The notes beneath the pieces were generated by a model. The model had not been told where the DNA came from, searched no databases, and saw only the letters and a program-made list of their open reading frames with translations. From Octopus vulgaris (Eukaryota): a DNA stretch of 64,000 nt. Numbering within the stretch: the first letter of the stretch is position 1; every line of letters begins with the position of its first letter. The position numbers were made by a program, and so were the translations under genes. The stretch is taken from assembly GCA_951406725.2 (NCBI GenBank), contig OX597815.1:183334001-183398000 (forward strand), given 5' to 3'. Positions 12,213-58,924 of the stretch are shown here, piece after piece.

Positions 12213-12381
12213 CTTAGAAATATACAAAAAATAATACATCAGTACTACTAGAGTTATAAATATTCTAATTATAAACTCACTACATCAGACAAGCGCTAAT
12301 TTCTGACATCATATATTGGACTTTTCGTTGAGTTTCTTATTTTATAATGAAACTTAGAAAGACCCTTGCTCTCCAACTTAT

Positions 12382-12574
12382 CATGAAGATTGTGTTAGAA
12401 TACAGAACTCTGCTTTACTTACCTTGAGAGGTCTTGTCATATGGACTTGTGGTGCATAAAAACATTTGTATTTATATTGATGACAGTAGAGTGTTTTTAT
12501 GCACCACAAGTCCAGATGAGAAGACCTCTCAAAGTAAGTAATGCAGTATTCGGTATTCTAACACAACCTCCATG
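12382..12574. repeat. Fold-back inverted repeat (83-bp arms, 27-bp loop)
   Basis: 12382-12464 is an imperfect reverse complement of 12492-12574. Confidence 0.9.
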
Positions 12575-14380
12575 TTAAATTGGAGATTCAGATTGCCTTT
12601 TGGAATTAATACTGCTTCCGTCACTCATCATCATTATTTAGCATCCATTTTTCATGCTGGCTTGGGTAAAACAGTTAGACTGGGGCTGATAAGCCAGAGA
12701 CCTGCACTAGGCTCTAGTCTGTTTTGTCTTGTTTCTACGGCTGGATACCCTACATAATACTAACAACGTCACAAAATGTGCTGGGTAGCTTTTATGTTAC
12801 TACTAATTATATTTTAAGAAGCCCACATGTAATTTGTGACACTAGTGCCTGAATAGACATTATTATTCTTTATATTGTTGAAAGAAGATATGGCTGTTAA
12901 GTTGCTGTCACTGATGAGCCCATAGCAGGATGGATTCACCTGATATTTACATTTATTCTTTTTTTAACTTGTTTCAGTCATTTGACTGCGGCCATAAATC
13001 AACCCCAGGACTTACTCTTTGTAAGCCTAGTACTTATTCTATCAGTCACTTTTGCTGAACCACTAAGTTATGGGGGATGTAAACACACCAACATTGGTTG
13101 CAGAAATATGGATGGTTTTATATTTACAGATATTTATTAGTATGTTACATGTTTTTATAAATCATATATCATATTAGCGCTTTCTTCCACTCTAGTGGAG
13201 TCTTCAAATTGAAGTAAGTTTTGCAGGAATTTTGACTTTTTATATAGTATTATTCAGTGTGTAGTGGTGGGGAGAGATATAAAATAGTACAAGAGGGTGA
13301 TGAATGGGGAGAAAGCGAGAGAGAGCATGTGTGTGTTTTTGTATCTGAAAAAGGTGTTAAAGAAAAAGAAGGAAGAAAAAAGAGAAAGAAGAAAAGATTT
13401 TTGTTGACATCTTTGCAGCTGGTCAGGTTGTCAGTAATAATGGATTCTTGGCTTTTAGTGATGGCAAATCCAGCTGTTTACTCCAAGGGGGGCAAAATGT
13501 CACTTTTCAGAAATATACACATATATATGTATATATGCATGTACATATATGACGGACTTCTTTCAGTTTCCGTCTGCCAAATCCACTCACAAGGCTTTTG
13601 TTGGCCTGAGGCTATATTTGAAGACATTTGTCCAAGGTTCCACACAGTGGGACTGAACTCAGAACCATGTGGTTGGAAAGCAAGCTTCTTATCACACAGC
13701 CACATTATTCAGTCTCTTTTTTTTTTAAATGATGGAGTGTGGTTTAAAAAGACCTTATATAGACTGCTTTATTAGCTCCAGATATAAATAGGTATTAAGC
13801 AGTAGTACAGCTTCCTATCGTAAGCTGTAGGATCATTAACATTGATGGATACCTTGTTTATTTCCAGTATTGAGTTCAGCTTCTTTTGTGAGTACTGCTT
13901 GAGGAGGGAGGGATTTCATTAGCCTCATTTGTTCAAGATGAAATATTTAATGGTGTCTGAATTATCTACTGATCCATAAGATTATGGTAAATATGTAAAT
14001 GAAGTAAATCACTTTGACAATAAATTAAATAAGAGCAAAAAGAAAATGAGAAAGTTAAGTGAAGTATTGAGGAAAAGTTTATGAAATTTGGTAAATTCTG
14101 TAATTTTTTTTTAGTCTAAAGGTTTTATTTCATCAGAGATATAGTTTCTGAGAAGTAACCATAGTGTGTTTCTAATGGAAATGGTTATTTAAGAGTTTGA
14201 GATTGAGAGTTAGTAGTCATGGCAGGCATTCAACATGTAAAAAAAAAATATTTGACCTCCATATTGTATCACATCTAGACTTTAATGATTTAGAAAAGAT
14301 TATTTATGAAAATTCAGAAACTCAAAGTGACCTGAAAAGATATTTCAAACAGTGTAGAAGTGATATAAAGAATGGCTTAC

Positions 14381-31668: not shown

Positions 31669-31921
31669 TATTGTGTTGGTGCATAATTATTGCGACTTTT
31701 TTTCAGCAAATTTTATTCAACAAAAACAATAATATTATTTAACAAAAGCATCTTTAAATGATGGTCTGACCATCTGCCAAGCAAAGGGGAAGCAGTAATT
31801 GAAGTAGATGGTGAATATGTTCCAGAATAATCATTTAAAGATGTTTTTGTTACGTTGTTATTGTTTTTGTTGAATAAAATTTATTGAAAAAAAGCTGCAA
31901 TAATTATGCACCAACCCAATA
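31669..31921. mobile_element. Mariner-derived MITE
   Basis: About 90-bp imperfect TIRs (ttg.gttggtgcataattattgc), TA at both ends. Confidence 0.88.
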
Positions 31922-38749: not shown

Positions 38750-39015
38750 CAAACTAAGCAACAAGGATATCCAAGGTAGTGTAGTACAATCATTTCATGC
38801 TACTTCATTTTATTAAACACTGTAAGTATTACATCAGTTTTAAAATGTCGAGCAATCTTCAGCCACAAATTGAATTTTTTAATTAAATAGACAATGTATA
38901 GTTTTATACTTATTTCATTTGCCAACATTACAAAGAGGGTAGATATATAGATAGAGAGGTTAATTTCATCATTAAGAACATGGTGGTAGTATGTCCTTCT
39001 CCATCTGTAGATTTT

Positions 39016-39056
<41 letters not shown>

Positions 39057-39133
39057 TGAGAAAAAAGGACAAAATGGAAAAATTGATGAATAGACATTAG
39101 TTTATTCAAAGATAATCAAATCAACATAATATG

Positions 39134-39240
39134 AAATTCTTATCCCTACACCCGTTTCCATAACCAATTAGTTCAATTAGAGAAATTAAATTAAATCAAT
39201 TTAAAATTTTCATGTTGGGTATTTCATCAGGGGAGAATTT
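39134..39240 (-). ncRNA. Type I hammerhead ribozyme motif
   Basis: tccc CTGATGA ...long imperfect stem II... GAAA cgggtg TA ggga. Confidence 0.7.
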
Positions 39241-40179
39241 CCAGAAAGAAGTTGCATTCCAACGTCAATTTCTCCATTTTCTTATTTTTTCTCATTCATA
39301 GATATTTTAAATACCAATATACATCAATATAAAACTAAAGCCTTTAGCTTTCACTGAACACTGGTATAAACCAGAGAACTAGGATGCAAACATCCCTTAA
39401 AAGGTTACAGATCCTTGGCATTATTATACTTATATATATCATCATTTAACATCTGTTGTCCGTCCATGCTGGTATCGGTTCGAGAGTTTGACTGAGCTGG
39501 CATGCTGGAAGGCTGTGCTAGGCTCCAGTCTGATATTGTATGGTTCTCTACAGCTGGTGGGTGCCCTTCCTAATGCCAACCACTCCGAGAGTGTAATGGG
39601 TGCTTTTACGTGTCATCAGTGTGGGTGCTGTTTGTGTGACACTGGTATCTGCCAGGACTTCAATTTTGCTTGGCTTGATGGGTCTTCTCAAGCACAACAT
39701 AATGCCAAAAGTCTCGGTCATTGCTTCCACGAGGCCCAACACTTGAAAGGAAGTTATATTTGTGGTTGGTAAGCAAGCTACTTACCATACAGCCACTCCT
39801 GCACCTATATAAGTTTTAAAGAACCATTTTTATTAAATTTCCTCTTAAATTGAAATGTCTTAGACTTACTTTTTTGTGCTGCTTTCACCTCCATCTTTTA
39901 TATATAAAAATTTGATTTCTATAGATCTCTAATCTTTTTTCAACCTATATATATATATATATATAATTGATATAGGATAAAATTTTTTTCGGGAAAAAAA
40001 TTTTATCAATGGCCAGCATATCAGAAAATGCCTTTAAAGGTAAAATTTATACATAATTTACAAGATAAGGGAAGAAGAAAAATTCTAATGCCAAATATGC
40101 TGAAACAAAAAATTGTCGATAACCATTAGAATTTATGCGTCTCGAAACAAACCGATAGAAAGCTCTAAAAAATTTGTTA

Positions 40180-40240
40180 TTACCGTATTGGTCCAATTTC
40201 GGGGTTAATTCATGAGAAATTTTCCCCTCTTCAGCGGCAA
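40180..40240 (-). ncRNA. Type I hammerhead ribozyme motif, intact core
   Basis: Minus strand reads ttgccg CTGAAGA gggg..cccc GAAA ttggaccaa TA cggtaa; stems I, II and III all pair. Confidence 0.85.
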
Positions 40241-40579
40241 ATACGCGAGATATAAATGAAATATGAATTTTTTAGAGATTTGTATCGGTTTGTTTCGAGA
40301 CGCATAAATTCTAATGGTTATTGACAATTTTTTGTTTCGGCATATTTGGCATTAGAATTTTTCTTCTGCCCTTATCTTGTAAATTATGTATATATATATA
40401 TATAACTGCTGACATTTGATGGAGTCTATTTTCTGCACATTTTTAGTGTTAATTGTACCTATGCACCTTCCATACATAAAAACTATTTTCCCTGTTAACC
40501 TTCCTCTGATATTGCTGCACCTCTTATGTACATTAATAAAGTCTATGATGTTCCATCTGCAAGTTATTATTGCTATTAT

Positions 40580-40945
40580 TATTTCTGTCTTAGCAAAGGT
40601 GGAGGTATTGTTTTCAGTTGTATTTGTTTGTTTATCAGTGGACAAGATATCTCAAAAATTGCTGGATGGATTTGAATGAAACTCTCAAGGATGTTTGGTC
40701 TTGTGACTGGCATGAACTGATGAGATTTGGGGATCAATCTGGTTCTGGACAAGGATTCTGTTATATTTCTGTTTTTTTTAAATTTTTTTTTAATTTTTGA
40801 GAGTGGTTGGGTTCATTTTTAGTATTCTCGTTTGTGAGAGCAGTTGAGTTTATTTCAGATATTCTCATTTAAAAATCACCTCCGGCTAATCGTTGAGAGG
40901 ACGCTGGTGTTGCCTTGGTAGAGGTTTGTGCTGAGTGCTCTTGCT
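40580..40945 (+). mobile_element. Helentron/DINE-like non-autonomous element
   Basis: 5' hairpin-like motif, gttt/tgtc microsatellite after it, and 3' ccttggtagagg motif. Confidence 0.5.
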
Positions 40946-41904: not shown

Positions 41905-42317
41905 ACAATATCATTTCTATTTACATTTGATAGTTATGTGTCCTCATCTTTGTTGTTACCACAACAGTTCGGCTGATTTGCTCTCCGGCCTTCATCAGGT
42001 GTCCTGGTGAAATTTTGAACCCAACCCCGGGTTCTCATTCCTAAGGTACTTTTTGATATTATTATTATTATTATAGTTTTATCTCCATCTCATCATGACG
42101 TTCCCCTGGAATCAGAAAATTTCTCCAGGCTATAAGGTGACAATAATAATGATAATAATAATAATATCAAAAAATACCTTAAAACCCGGGGTTGGGTTCA
42201 AAATTCCAGCAGTACACCTGATGAAGGCTGGAGAGTAAATCAGCTGAAATGTTGTGGTAACAACAAACAAGATGAGGACACATATCCGTCCAATGTAAAT
42301 GATGTAAATAATGTACA
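41905..42317. mobile_element. Two inverted copies of a Penelope-like terminal repeat, each with a degenerate minimal hammerhead
   Basis: About 41912-42073 is the reverse complement of about 42145-42317. The plus copy reads acac CTGATGA aggctg..cagct GAAA tgtt gtg (42214-42256); the mirror copy is at 41958-42004. Confidence 0.7.
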
Positions 42318-52515: not shown

Positions 52516-53311
52516 TGGGGTTGGATGAAATAATGGAAACATCTTAAAATTTCAAACAAATTTATTTTAATATGGGGTAGGACCGCCTTTGGCAGTAATT
52601 ACAGCTTGAATTCTACAAGATATGGACTCGTACAAAGTTTGAATTGTTTCCAAAGGAATTTTTGTCCATTCTTCAGCTAAAACAGTCTCCAGTTCTTGTA
52701 GTGATGATGGTGGAGGATATCAATTCCTTACTTGTTTTTCTAAAATGCATCATAAATGTTCAATAATATTGAGATCTGGGGACTGTAGTGGCCAAATAAG
52801 ATGTTCAACTTCACTAGAATGTTCCTCGTGCCATTCAGTAACAACTTTAGCTGTGTGAATTGGAGCATTATCAGCCCGAAAGATTGTGTTTCCCTCCGGA
52901 AACAGTTCCGCAACCATAGGATGAATTTGATGAGATAAAATGCTTTAATAGTCTGCCATGAAGGGAAATCATTGGGCCGGCAGATTTCCAAGATATAGCT
53001 GCCCCAGATCATCACAGATCCTCCTCCATGTTTAACAGTTGGAAGAATACAGTCTGGGTCAAATGCTTCTTTTGGCTGTCTCCACATGTATACTTGACTG
53101 GTGGTCAGAAATCAGGTAAAGGATGATTTGTCCAAGAAAACAACATTCTTCCACTGCTCTAGGGATGAATTCTGTAGGTTTTTACTCCACTCTAAATGCT
53201 TTGCAACCTTTGTTTTAGAAAGTAATAGTAGTGAAACAAGCTTTTGACTGTTTTATAGATATTTCAAAATTATGATGCTATGTGTTTCCATTATTTTGTC
53301 CAACCCCTGTA
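52513..53311 (-). mobile_element. Tc1-like element remnant inserted in (TA)n
   Basis: TIRs ggggttgga..aaataatggaaaca; TVKHGGGSVMIWG. Confidence 0.9.
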
Positions 53312-53537
53312 TATATATATATATTGTGAAATAGAAAGATGAATAATCTTGTTGCAGATTAATCAAAAGTTTAACCGATACCTTGGTAGCAAAAATCACA
53401 GCAGAAGACAGCACGGTTGGAGGTACAACCATATGGTGTTGCAACCATGCGTTGGTGCGGATAATTGAATTATAATATTATTAGTGAATTGAAGAAATGG
53501 AGTTGAACGAAGATTGAACAGAAATCGTTTTATTGCA

Positions 53538-53617
53538 TTCTACACGTGTTTCGAAAGCCACAATTTACCAAATTCCGATTGAATAAGGAGACCATATTGT
53601 GTCTTTCTCTTCAGGAA
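53538..53617 (-). ncRNA. Type I hammerhead ribozyme motif, intact core
   Basis: ttc CTGAAGA gaaag...ctttc GAAA cacgtg TA gaa; palindromic stem III. Confidence 0.82.
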
Positions 53618-53754
53618 GAAATAGGAAATCCGTTGGAAAAAACAAAAACAGAACAGAGGCGGAGCAAAACAAATCGAACGAGGCTCCTAAGAGCCCATGG
53701 CCAAACGATTTCTGTTCAATCTTCGTTCAACTCCATTTCTTCAATTCACTAATA

Positions 53755-53785
<31 letters not shown>

Positions 53786-55205: not shown

Positions 55206-57254
55206 CTGATTTCAAAAAAAATTTTTAAAAAGGCAAAGATTAAGTTGTAGGAATGTATCTGCATTCTGCTTAGTATTGATTAGAAAAAAAAGCTTGCCTT
55301 GTTATTTGGTTATGTAGAGATTTTGGGAATCTTTTTAAATTTTTGTTATGGTAAAGTCAAAAGTGAAAGTTGTGAGCCTGTGATCTTTGAAAAGACTGGT
55401 GCAAAGGAAAATGTAGGAAGAAATCATGAGTTTTGTGATATTTTTATACTAAAGACTTTATCTACATGTTTGCAAGAATGAACTTGCTAACAATACCCAC
55501 AGGACAAATAGTGGTGTTAAGCTGGATGACAGACTAAGCATACCATCCAGAATCTAAAAGTCTTGCCTCAGCTGTAGCTACCTTCACCACAAGACAAACT
55601 TTTAATTCTTCTATTGCTTTTGTCATTGGTAACATTCACAATGTATAAACTTGGCACAGAAGTCTCATGTCTATCCATCTAGGTGAGTGAGAGTCAAATT
55701 TTATTGAAACTTTTTCAATACAAACAGCTTTCTTCCATTGTAAAAATGAGTTTTTTCTTAATTAACTGTGCTGTTGCAACAATGAGTTTCAATGTAAATT
55801 GTAACAATCTGATTAATTGTATTCTATGTTTTATTTCTAAGTGATAAACTATAAATTTTTATAGAATTCAGAGCTAACACTGTAAGTTACAGCATTATAA
55901 TTTACTCTGCTAGCTCTTAATTCAATACAAAATCTACAGTTTATCACTCGAAAGTAAGAATATTACACTGCTAACACAAAAAAGTAAGACATTTGGTGAT
56001 GGCATTTAAAAAATTTGTTTAGTATAACTATTTATAGGAAATGGAATTTTGTGAACTCTATTTGTAATAATTCCAAACATTCACTCTCTTATAAACATTT
56101 TGTTATAATTTTTATAATACTCAACTTCATCATCATCATCATTGTTTAATGCCCGCTTTCCATACTGGCATGGGTTGGACAATTTGACTGAGGACTGGCA
56201 AACCAGATGGTTGCACCAGGCTCCAATCTGATCTGGCAGAGTTTCTACAGCTGGATGTCTTTCCTAACGTCAACCACTCTGAGAGTGTAGTGGGTGCTTT
56301 TACATGCCACTAGCATGAGGGCCAGTCAGGCGGTACTGGCAACAACCATGCTCAAAATTATATATCCCAACTTGTGGGATATATAATTATTTCAACAGAT
56401 ATAAAATATTTTTCATCAGACTTTGAGCTGGGTAGTCTTAATTTTGTAATTATGGACTGAATGAAAGGTATAAAAATATATGAAAAAAATCAAAACTCGA
56501 ATAATATAATTCAAAAGATGCAATTAATATTAATTAGTGTAAGGTGGAAAGCTGGCACACTCATTAGCATGCCAGGCAAAATGCATGATGGCATTTCATC
56601 CATTATTATGTTCTGAATTCAAATTCTGCTGAGTTTACCCCTGCCTTTCATCCTTTACAGGGTCAATAAAGTAAATATCAGCTGAATGTTGGGGGTCAAT
56701 TTAACTGACTAACACCCACACCCAGCCTTTGCCAAAATTTGAGACCAAAGGTAGCGAGCTGGCCAGATCACTGGTACACTGAGCTCAGTGACATTTTGTT
56801 TGACTTTATACTCTGCGTTCAAGTTTTGCTAGGGTTCACTTTGCCCAACACTGGGATCGATGTAATTACCCCAAAATCTGAGGCCTTAGTAGAAAGGAAT
56901 ACTAGTTAATATTTTTACTGTCTCCCCTTGCCTGATTAAGCACTAAACAGAAATCGTCATCATCATCATCATCGTTTAACGTCCGCTTTCCATGCTAGCA
57001 TGGGTTGGAAGATTTGACTGAGGGTTGGCGAACCAGATGGCTGCACCAGGCTCCAATCTTGATTTGGCAGAGTTTCTACAGCTGGATGCCCTTCCTAACG
57101 CCAACCACTCCGAGAGTGTCGTGGGTGCTTTTTACGTGCCACCAGCATGGGGGCTAGTCAGGCAGTACTGGCAATGACCTCGCTCGAATCTTTTTACACA
57201 TGCCACCGGCACAGGTGCCAGTAAAGTGACCAAATATTTTTGAGATTTACTTAC

Positions 57255-58039: not shown

Positions 58040-58924
58040 TACGAGGTCTGATCAATAAGTATCCGAACTGGTGCTATGAAAACAAAACCAGAATGTGTAC
58101 CAATTTGGCATTTAATCTCCTTCAAGATAATCCCTTTCAGAATCCAAATACTTAATCTAGCACTGTTTCCATTGATGGAAGCATTCCTGGAACTTGTTTT
58201 CTGGGATAATCAGCAGCTGCCTCATCGCATTCACTTTGATTTCCTCAACATCCTGAAATCTTCTTCCTTTCAAGTGGGATTTGATTTTTCGAAAGAGGAA
58301 AAAGTTGCAAGGGGTGAGATTGGGGGAATAGAGTGGCTGGCAGACCTGGGGAATGCTGTGCCTAGCTAAAAACTGCTGCACAAGCTGTGCTGAATGGGCA
58401 AGTGCATTGTCAACTGAAAGCAGTTTTGGCACAAACTTGGCAGACACATGTCTCATACCCAAATCTTCAGTGATAACAGACTTAACTGAACCATAACTAA
58501 TCTGCACATTCTCTGATAACTCACTGATGAGGATTCGATAATTTCCTCTCACAGCTGCATCCACATCTGCGATGTTTTTCTCAGTTCTGTTGGTTGCAAG
58601 TCCCTCAGAATGTTCGTCATTATCGAAATTTTTTTTTATCATACACTCCTCTCCATACACTTCTGCAACTTTGCGTAGGCTTCTGAGCAGGTATTGCCAA
58701 GCTTTTGGCAAAATTTGATGTAGATTCATGTCAATGCGATGACCACACACTACACATGTTCCTTCCAAGCACTGTTGTAAATAGTGGAAGTGAGCTAGAA
58801 TGTTAAAACTTAGTGTGCATGGACAGCAGAGTTCAAGGTCAATCTTTGCCTAATAGCTTTACTCTGCATGCTTTAGCTTTGTTACTATGGCAACAGTCTG
58901 GATACTTATTGATCAGACCACTTA
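58040..58924 (-). mobile_element. Mariner element, internally deleted
   Basis: TA-flanked TIRs (gaggtctgatcaataagtatcc); ORF 58157-58768 with KFVPKLL, DNALAH and YSPNLTPCNF. Confidence 0.92.

Follow-up and report, generated by a model that had tools for sequence, protein, structure and literature searches.

Is a hammerhead ribozyme held between mirror-image arms a mobile element in its own right, or are the arms the trace of the way in which a longer repeat was inserted? This question is raised by positions 39967-40404 (hereafter the 40-kb copy) of the stretch of octopus DNA analysed here, which is 64,000 nucleotides long and is called the window throughout. A first-pass annotation, made from the letters alone, had taken the fold-back for the element: a non-coding, self-cleaving, retrozyme-like unit that is mobilised by Penelope-like proteins. 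We examined the motif, the arms, the relatives of the repeat in public sequencing runs and the published accounts of similar insertions, and the parts of this claim fare differently.

A type I hammerhead motif in an intron

The window, a repeat-dense stretch of AT-rich animal DNA, has on its minus strand a multi-exon host gene (8352-62908) with VWD, C8, TIL and TSP1 (thrombospondin) domains; we take this gene to be SCO-spondin/hemolectin/mucin-like. Its frames around the 40-kb copy include the following:

44169-43933, minus strand: one half of a C8 domain
41453-41211, minus strand: the other half of the C8 domain
35978-35853, minus strand: cysteine-rich, exon-like frame with no Pfam match

Because host exon frames flank it, the 40-kb copy is intronic and its ribozyme reads in the sense direction of the host; this direction is shared by the three hammerheads at 40.2, 39.2 and 53.6 kb. 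The domain scan covered 44 of the 51 open frames of the window, the other seven being frames in simple repeats or runs of N, and among these 44 neither a Penelope reverse transcriptase nor a GIY-YIG domain was found. No tRNA head was found in the window. To the right of the copy lie two further high-copy repeats (40411-40529 and 40576-40690), and a weak match to a DDE_3 transposase, below the curated cut-off (E 2.7e-05), is present on the minus strand at 58160-58849.

The ribozyme motif has the following parts, all on the minus strand:

40240-40180: type I hammerhead motif of canonical geometry, with no extra base after A9
40240-40235 and 40185-40180: helix I, TTGCCG with CGGTAA, 6 bp with one G-U pair
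40234-40228: core sequence CTGAAGA
40227-40224 and 40204-40201: helix II, GGGG with CCCC, four G-C pairs and a 19-nt loop
40200-40197: core sequence GAAA
40197-40187: region of helix III, an 11-nt palindrome, A-TTGGACCAA-T, whose middle base is A
40186/40185: predicted cut, at the AUA triplet

The order of the core elements, CUGAAGA, GAAA and AUA, is that of the CUGANGA, GAAA and NUH of a type I hammerhead, and the three helices are of 6, 4 and 4-5 bp, with the open ends in helix I and the G10.1-C11.1 pair present. The palindrome at 40197-40187 can form helix III in two ways, as 4 bp with a 3-nt loop within one RNA or as 5+5 bp between two RNAs. In addition, positions 40243-40245 could lengthen helix I across a 2x2 internal loop, the third pair requiring the family-majority base at 40175. 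A strict descriptor (helix I at least 6, helix II at least 4 and helix III at least 4 bp) finds a single site in the 64-kb window, at 40240-40180, and none in 200 dinucleotide-shuffled windows, and this confirms the motif that the first-pass annotation had named. A relaxed descriptor finds two sites in the real sequence, where 60 shuffles give 0.23 on average.

A search with hammerhead covariance models had been proposed as a check on this motif, and here Rfam gave no hammerhead match. There were no matches at the gathering threshold across the window, and none of the six matches obtained in 38900-40500 up to E 10 belongs to a hammerhead family. This miss at 40240-40180 lowers the case for membership of an Rfam family, not the case for the presence of the hammerhead fold. 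Minimal hammerheads had been named as those that Penelope-like elements carry, and the ribozyme is not minimal. Its helices are canonical (helix I of 6 bp, helix II of 4 bp), whereas the Penelope minimal form, as given in the available text of PMC4209133, has a helix I of 4-5 bp, a helix II of 7-8 bp, an extra base after A9 and a helix III that is small or absent, none of which is found at 40240-40180.

Among the family contigs described below, helix variants at 3% or more are almost absent; 40225 varies while its partner is unchanged, and a 1-nt insertion at the centre of the palindrome, which keeps the symmetry, makes up 4-9% of depth in three runs. No compensatory changes in the ribozyme helices were seen among these contig variants. 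One of 42 ribozyme sites is variable compared with 11 of 133 sites elsewhere, and this lower variability is not significant (p 0.30).

By prediction, the lone ribozyme misfolds, and cutting would need two RNAs paired through the 11-nt palindrome. In a lone RNA the hammerhead fold is at -8.5 kcal/mol compared with -12.4 kcal/mol for the best fold, and in three contexts helices I and III have a pair probability of at most 0.04 and helix II one of 0.77-0.96. The palindrome-palindrome duplex of two RNAs is worth -8.9 kcal/mol. An approximate dimer, at -28.7 kcal/mol, is favoured over two monomer hammerheads (-20.8 kcal/mol), but two misfolded monomers (-30.8 kcal/mol) remain the more stable by 2 kcal/mol. 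Cutting probably needs a partner, whether RNA or protein, and since the lone ribozyme is predicted to misfold, the intronic copy at 39967-40404 is probably inert and silent. As a ribozyme missed by Rfam, the motif is an easy test case for dimer gating. The strand as a whole is predicted to fold into a rod of great stability (-203 kcal/mol, z -27), which is due to the inverted repeat alone.

Arms, tail and relatives of the 40-kb copy

We regard the 40-kb copy, with considerable confidence, as one aged insertion of Penelope type, in which two truncated copies of a repeat lie head to head in (TA)n. In this order along the window, its parts are:

39946-39965, no strand: target microsatellite, (TA)10, where the long copy has its 3′ end; relatives adjoin (TA)n here too
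39967-40047, minus strand: 81-nt tail, one-sided, bounded by the family's two 3′ end points
40048-40177, minus strand: arm of the long copy, the body downstream of the ribozyme
40241-40263, minus strand: remaining 5′ part of the long copy, ending where this is truncated; relatives go on past 40263
40263-40392, plus strand: inverted second copy, more strongly 5′-truncated, without tail or ribozyme, equal to 40177-40048 and head to head with it
40389-40404, no strand: target microsatellite, (TA)8, where the inverted copy has its 3′ end

The inverted arms, the one-sided tail of some 80 nt and the (TA)n on both sides were correctly described in the first-pass annotation. The arms, at 40045-40174 and 40266-40395, are 130 nt long and 95% alike; compared base by base, their limits are 40048-40177 and 40263-40392, with seven mismatches in 130. 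The distance of about 11 nt that had been given between the predicted cut and the arm stands by strict identity, but becomes 8 nt if the family-majority base is allowed at 40175. The tail contains a 14-bp AT-rich hairpin (z -2.2). No second copy of the family was found in the 64-kb window, and no target-site duplication is legible within (TA)n. Both arms share a base (40129 G, 40311 C) at which more than 90% of contig depth reads otherwise, and because this rare base is common to them we conclude that both arms come from one source RNA. The arms differ at seven positions, and at four of these (40072, 40101, 40162 and 40175) the family agrees with the inverted copy; these four differences are therefore put down to later decay.

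The stretch is partly represented in 20 public runs from 10 studies. The repeat at 39967-40265 is an abundant and varied family, matched by 3003, 1408, 1777 and 2357 contigs in the DNA runs X1, X2, X3 and X5 (contig depth was not taken as copy number), and this agrees with the mobility that had been proposed for it. Exact 22-nt patterns gave no loci in metagenome contigs or viral contigs. The runs are not uniform in the variants they hold: at 40163 and 40213, X1 has 8% and 14% non-window bases and X2, X3 and X5 have 24-59%, and X1 and X2 differ in subfamily make-up despite having the same organism code.

Several contigs (9, 12, 9 and 20 in the four runs) diverge at 40263 into one common other continuation. 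Because relatives share this continuation past 40263, the copy in the window is 5′-truncated. Other opposite-strand joints are seen at 40126/40263 (X1), 40077/40263 (X5) and 40144/40199 (X1 and X3), and one X17 contig departs at 40260 into sequence resembling the arm, at a point roughly equivalent to 40139. The X1 joint at 40126/40263 has seven extra letters of upstream family sequence before the arm, and both sides of this junction therefore differ from the window copy. Together with that of the window copy there are five junctions among the contigs listed, each of the other four resting on one or two short contigs. At these junctions the inverted copies are 130, 79, 30, 97 and 92 nt long (the window copy first, the X17 contig last) and start 8, 59, 108, 41 and 46 nt past the cut, in the same order. 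Whether arm length is fixed or varies from copy to copy had been put forward as a check, and it varies, with five different junctions. Because relatives extend upstream and have other junctions, we read the arms as a product made at each insertion; the mirror arms are likely a by-product of one insertion event and not a mobile unit. The long-copy 5′ ends cluster at 40260-40270 in four of the five junctions, but this was set aside, since the queries ended there.

At the other end, loose ends dominated by (TA)n occur before 39970/39973 in all four runs, with 10-37 contigs per row among those listed. Among the loose ends listed there is also one before 40049, with three contigs, in X5 only, which coincides with the end of the inverted arm of the window copy. 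The family thus has two 3′ end points about 81 nt apart, the inner one being known from the window copy and these three contigs. Beyond the end of the tail, some loose-end consensuses contain, mixed with (TA)n, a stretch of other sequence that recurs, which hints that the template extends beyond the outer 3′ end; such an extension is predicted by a retrozyme parent and by a pLTR parent alike. No spliced form was found among the loose ends listed.

Depth in the bin 40240-40255 of the region 40240-40700 is 66 in X1, 0 in X5, 0 in X7 and 461 in X17, compared with an arm depth of 1e5-8e5 in X1 and X5; the depths of 66 and 461 come from contigs with other junctions. The window copy's own junction is bridged by no listed contig, but the window allele itself is also unseen, so this hole is not evidence. 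X7 and X17 are presumed RNA runs, in which no transcription was seen; the fold-back junction contig of high depth (461) in X17 is perhaps a copy inside an expressed host transcript.

The layout can be set beside published insertions. In the part of PMC8557442 available to us, Penelope-like insertions are 5′-truncated, often carry an inverted 5′-truncated copy, have a 30-40-bp tail at one end and favour (TA)n, and the role of the hammerhead in Penelope-like elements is stated to be unclear. In PMC3846280, again as far as its available text goes, some pLTRs stand head to head, the inverted copy being the shorter, and others are solo. The Penelope protein of an anole, according to the accessible portion of PMC11167929, nicks both strands of AT-rich DNA and initiates cDNA at two internal sites, one on either side of the tail; ribozyme cleavage there is assisted by the protein and is dispensable for insertion in vitro. 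The 40-kb copy has the same structural features, namely a 5′ truncation, an inverted 5′-truncated copy, a junction that varies between copies and a (TA)n target, together with a one-sided tail and two 3′ ends, but its tail has 81 nt and those in the published text seen have 30-40 nt. By analogy, a Penelope-type reverse transcriptase/endonuclease would have nicked both strands of the (TA)n microsatellite, and cDNA would have started at two internal points of the RNA, an outer one near 39967 and an inner one near 40048. The first and longer cDNA would have copied the ribozyme and stopped at about 40263; the second and shorter would have stopped at about 40177, before the ribozyme; and the two cDNA ends, both from one source RNA, would then have been joined head to head. 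In this course of events the long cDNA would have passed through the ribozyme, and its template would therefore have been uncut there. A Penelope-type enzyme is likely to have moved the repeat, as had been proposed, although the link to Penelope proteins is drawn solely from layout. The 40-kb copy is retroelement debris with a well-preserved ribozyme motif, in a layout that is already known.

Competing accounts of the arms

Other repeats in the window bear on how the arms arose:

53310-53779 (head-to-head part 53471-53763), minus strand: unrelated element with inverted arms of about 60 nt, flanked by (TA)n
39054-39300, minus strand: hammerhead repeat with 37-nt arms (five mismatches by eye) that adjoins (TA)n
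41919-42300: head-to-head pair with a decayed minimal hammerhead in both arms, at 41998 on the minus strand and 42218 on the plus strand

In the first of these, a hammerhead whose helix III is palindromic and whose loop II has 45 nt lies between the arms (53617-53538), the arm of 53471-53763 begins 10 nt past the predicted cut, and some 150 nt follow to the next (TA)n. The repeat at 39054-39300 is decayed; its core, at 39230, is of the minimal type, its helix II region is AT-rich and, at about 65 nt, unusually long, and its arm begins about 57 nt past the cut. In the pair at 41919-42300, (AAT)n-like runs lie between the arms and the inverted copy includes the ribozyme. Arm lengths in these unrelated families are 37, about 60 and at least 93 nt. 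Because the head-to-head layout is found in three unrelated hammerhead repeats, it is common in the window and not tied to one family. The window also has a hammerhead-like string (CTGATGA ... GAAA, 37525-37464, minus strand) with an 8-bp helix I and a weak helix II, which is found by the loosest descriptor only. Fold-backs with no clear hammerhead lie at 12370-12586, 31669-31921 and 55840-55948; the terminal repeats of 31669-31921 are presumably those of a mariner-like MITE.

The most serious competitor keeps the Penelope-type insertion but lets the ribozyme set the point at which the inverted copy stops, either because the cleaved 3′ product is the template or because synthesis stalls at the foot of helix I. 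The close spacing of cut and inverted copy in two elements, 8 nt in the 40-kb copy and 10 nt at 53471-53763, speaks for it, as does the fact that both of these ends fall where an extended helix I would end (pairing by eye). All five inverted copies of the family end downstream of the cut, but under uniform ends this has a chance probability of about 0.5, and the other four junctions lie 41, 46, 59 and 108 nt past the cut. Elsewhere in the window, the inverted copy of 39054-39300 stops well beyond its cut and that of 41919-42300 runs through the ribozyme; moreover, in the available text of PMC11167929 cleavage is not needed for anole insertion in vitro. We consider this account unlikely, and the tie between arm start and cleavage site that the first-pass annotation suggested is not a rule of the family. 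A bolder combination, in which the repeat is an undescribed animal (probably cephalopod) retrozyme gated by its palindrome and the ribozyme leaves a footprint, inverted copies ending preferentially 8-10 nt past the cut, is likewise doubtful. If true, it would provide evidence, from the genome, of folding or cutting by Penelope hammerheads on template RNA in vivo; junction positions over many copies of the family would bear on whether ribozyme folding or cutting shapes insertion.

We think it very improbable that the second arm was made after insertion, by a local template switch or by repair that copied the first arm in reverse. The rare base in both arms would be expected from such a local duplication too, but the inverted copy ends at 40048, where other copies also adjoin (TA)n, and unrelated families have this layout too, which is in print as a feature of integration. 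Nor do we give much credence, if any, to the fold-back as such, that is, to a fixed non-coding mini-element of arm, ribozyme, arm and tail that transposes as a unit. The very stable rod (-203 kcal/mol), the rare variant present in both arms and the intact ribozyme in the loop could all be read in its favour; against this, stability follows from any inverted repeat, unrelated families in the window have the same build with other arm lengths, and relatives continue past 40263 and have four other junctions. The first-pass annotation had taken the fold-back itself for the element, and on this point we depart from it. That a hammerhead was captured between the terminal inverted repeats of a MITE or other DNA transposon can be dismissed with near certainty. 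Long inverted arms and TA flanks are present, and the presumed MITE at 31669-31921 has arms of this kind; but 81 nt of the family's sequence lies outside one arm, arm length differs between copies (30-130 nt) with variable inner ends, and the family extends beyond the junction. The arms are not fixed transposon termini, in keeping with the first-pass annotation.

The parent repeat and known systems

A single Penelope-type insertion of two truncated copies remains the preferred reading, and the question becomes what kind of repeat was inserted. There is about an even chance that the parent was a short non-coding unit of retrozyme type, moved in trans; the end repeat (pLTR) of a protein-coding Penelope-like element has a substantial chance, though below even; and something else again has a slim one. 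The canonical 6-bp and 4-bp helices and the lack of a coding signal would slightly favour the non-coding, retrozyme-type parent over a pLTR, as judged from sequence. Two observations were counted for a coding parent. The upstream continuation has a splice-donor-like word, GTAAGT, just beyond the 40263 junction, which counts because Penelope pLTRs would have introns, and no tandem unit is seen in the 40-kb copy, which has one ribozyme.

A 71-codon frame at 40262-40050 was considered as the start of an open reading frame and rejected; its length is a matter of chance (183 of 2000 shuffles) and it has no third-position bias, third positions accounting for 4 of the 20 variable sites. It had no Pfam match and no homologue at E of 0.1 or below among longer proteins, a weak test with seven candidates. 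The open reading frames of the anole and rotifer elements begin downstream of the ribozyme, whereas the 40-kb copy has no coding signal there, so that the non-coding nature first claimed for the repeat holds for the part seen. A canonical type I hammerhead in a non-coding repeat, which is one of the marks of a retrozyme, is found in the 297 nt available. The label retrozyme-like may fit the parent repeat, in which no tandem unit has been seen.

In the available parts of PMC7229834 and bioRxiv 10.64898/2026.07.22.740005, retrozymes are tandem units derived from Penelope pLTRs, the units being of 150-450 nt with one ribozyme each, and they give linear and circular monomer RNA. As far as the text at hand of PMC4209133 goes, Penelope ribozymes occur in pairs on opposite strands 100-700 bp apart, and their cleavage is weak and dimer-dependent; dimer cleavage by Lunse et al. 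is cited in the portion seen of PMC6765202. The giant squid has 235 hammerhead matches according to the part available of PMC6962438. We found no published description of a hammerhead-bearing Penelope or retrozyme family from octopus or another cephalopod, although Repbase or Dfam may catalogue one, and two 18-nt strings of the family are absent from one supplementary table of PMC8557442.

Taken against these systems, the 40-kb copy resembles the metazoan non-LTR retrozymes, as described in the text seen of PMC7229834 and bioRxiv 10.64898/2026.07.22.740005, in being short, AT-rich, apparently non-coding and high-copy and in having a canonical type I hammerhead. It differs from them in that retrozymes are tandem units that form circles, whereas it has one ribozyme and an inverted layout and is intronic. 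With the Penelope type I hammerheads of PMC4209133, in the part available, it shares an intact core, a small palindromic helix III and a predicted dependence on dimers; unlike their minimal form, it has helices of 6 and 4 bp, no extra base and a 19-nt loop II. Compared with the Penelope-like insertions in the published text seen, it is without an open reading frame or a tandem pLTR, has a longer tail (81 nt versus 30-40) and carries a ribozyme whose helices are of canonical size and whose palindromic helix III is longer than that of the minimal form. The 40-kb copy has the structure of a Penelope-type insertion, and its place in a named clade or among the retrozymes hinges on the parent. In the same published accounts, it is like the insertions of the endonuclease-bearing Penelope-like elements (Penelope/Poseidon, Neptune and Naiad) in its truncated copy joined to a shorter inverted one and its tail at one end, and like Penelope-like insertions in its two 3′ end points, its (TA)n target and its hammerhead near the 3′ end.
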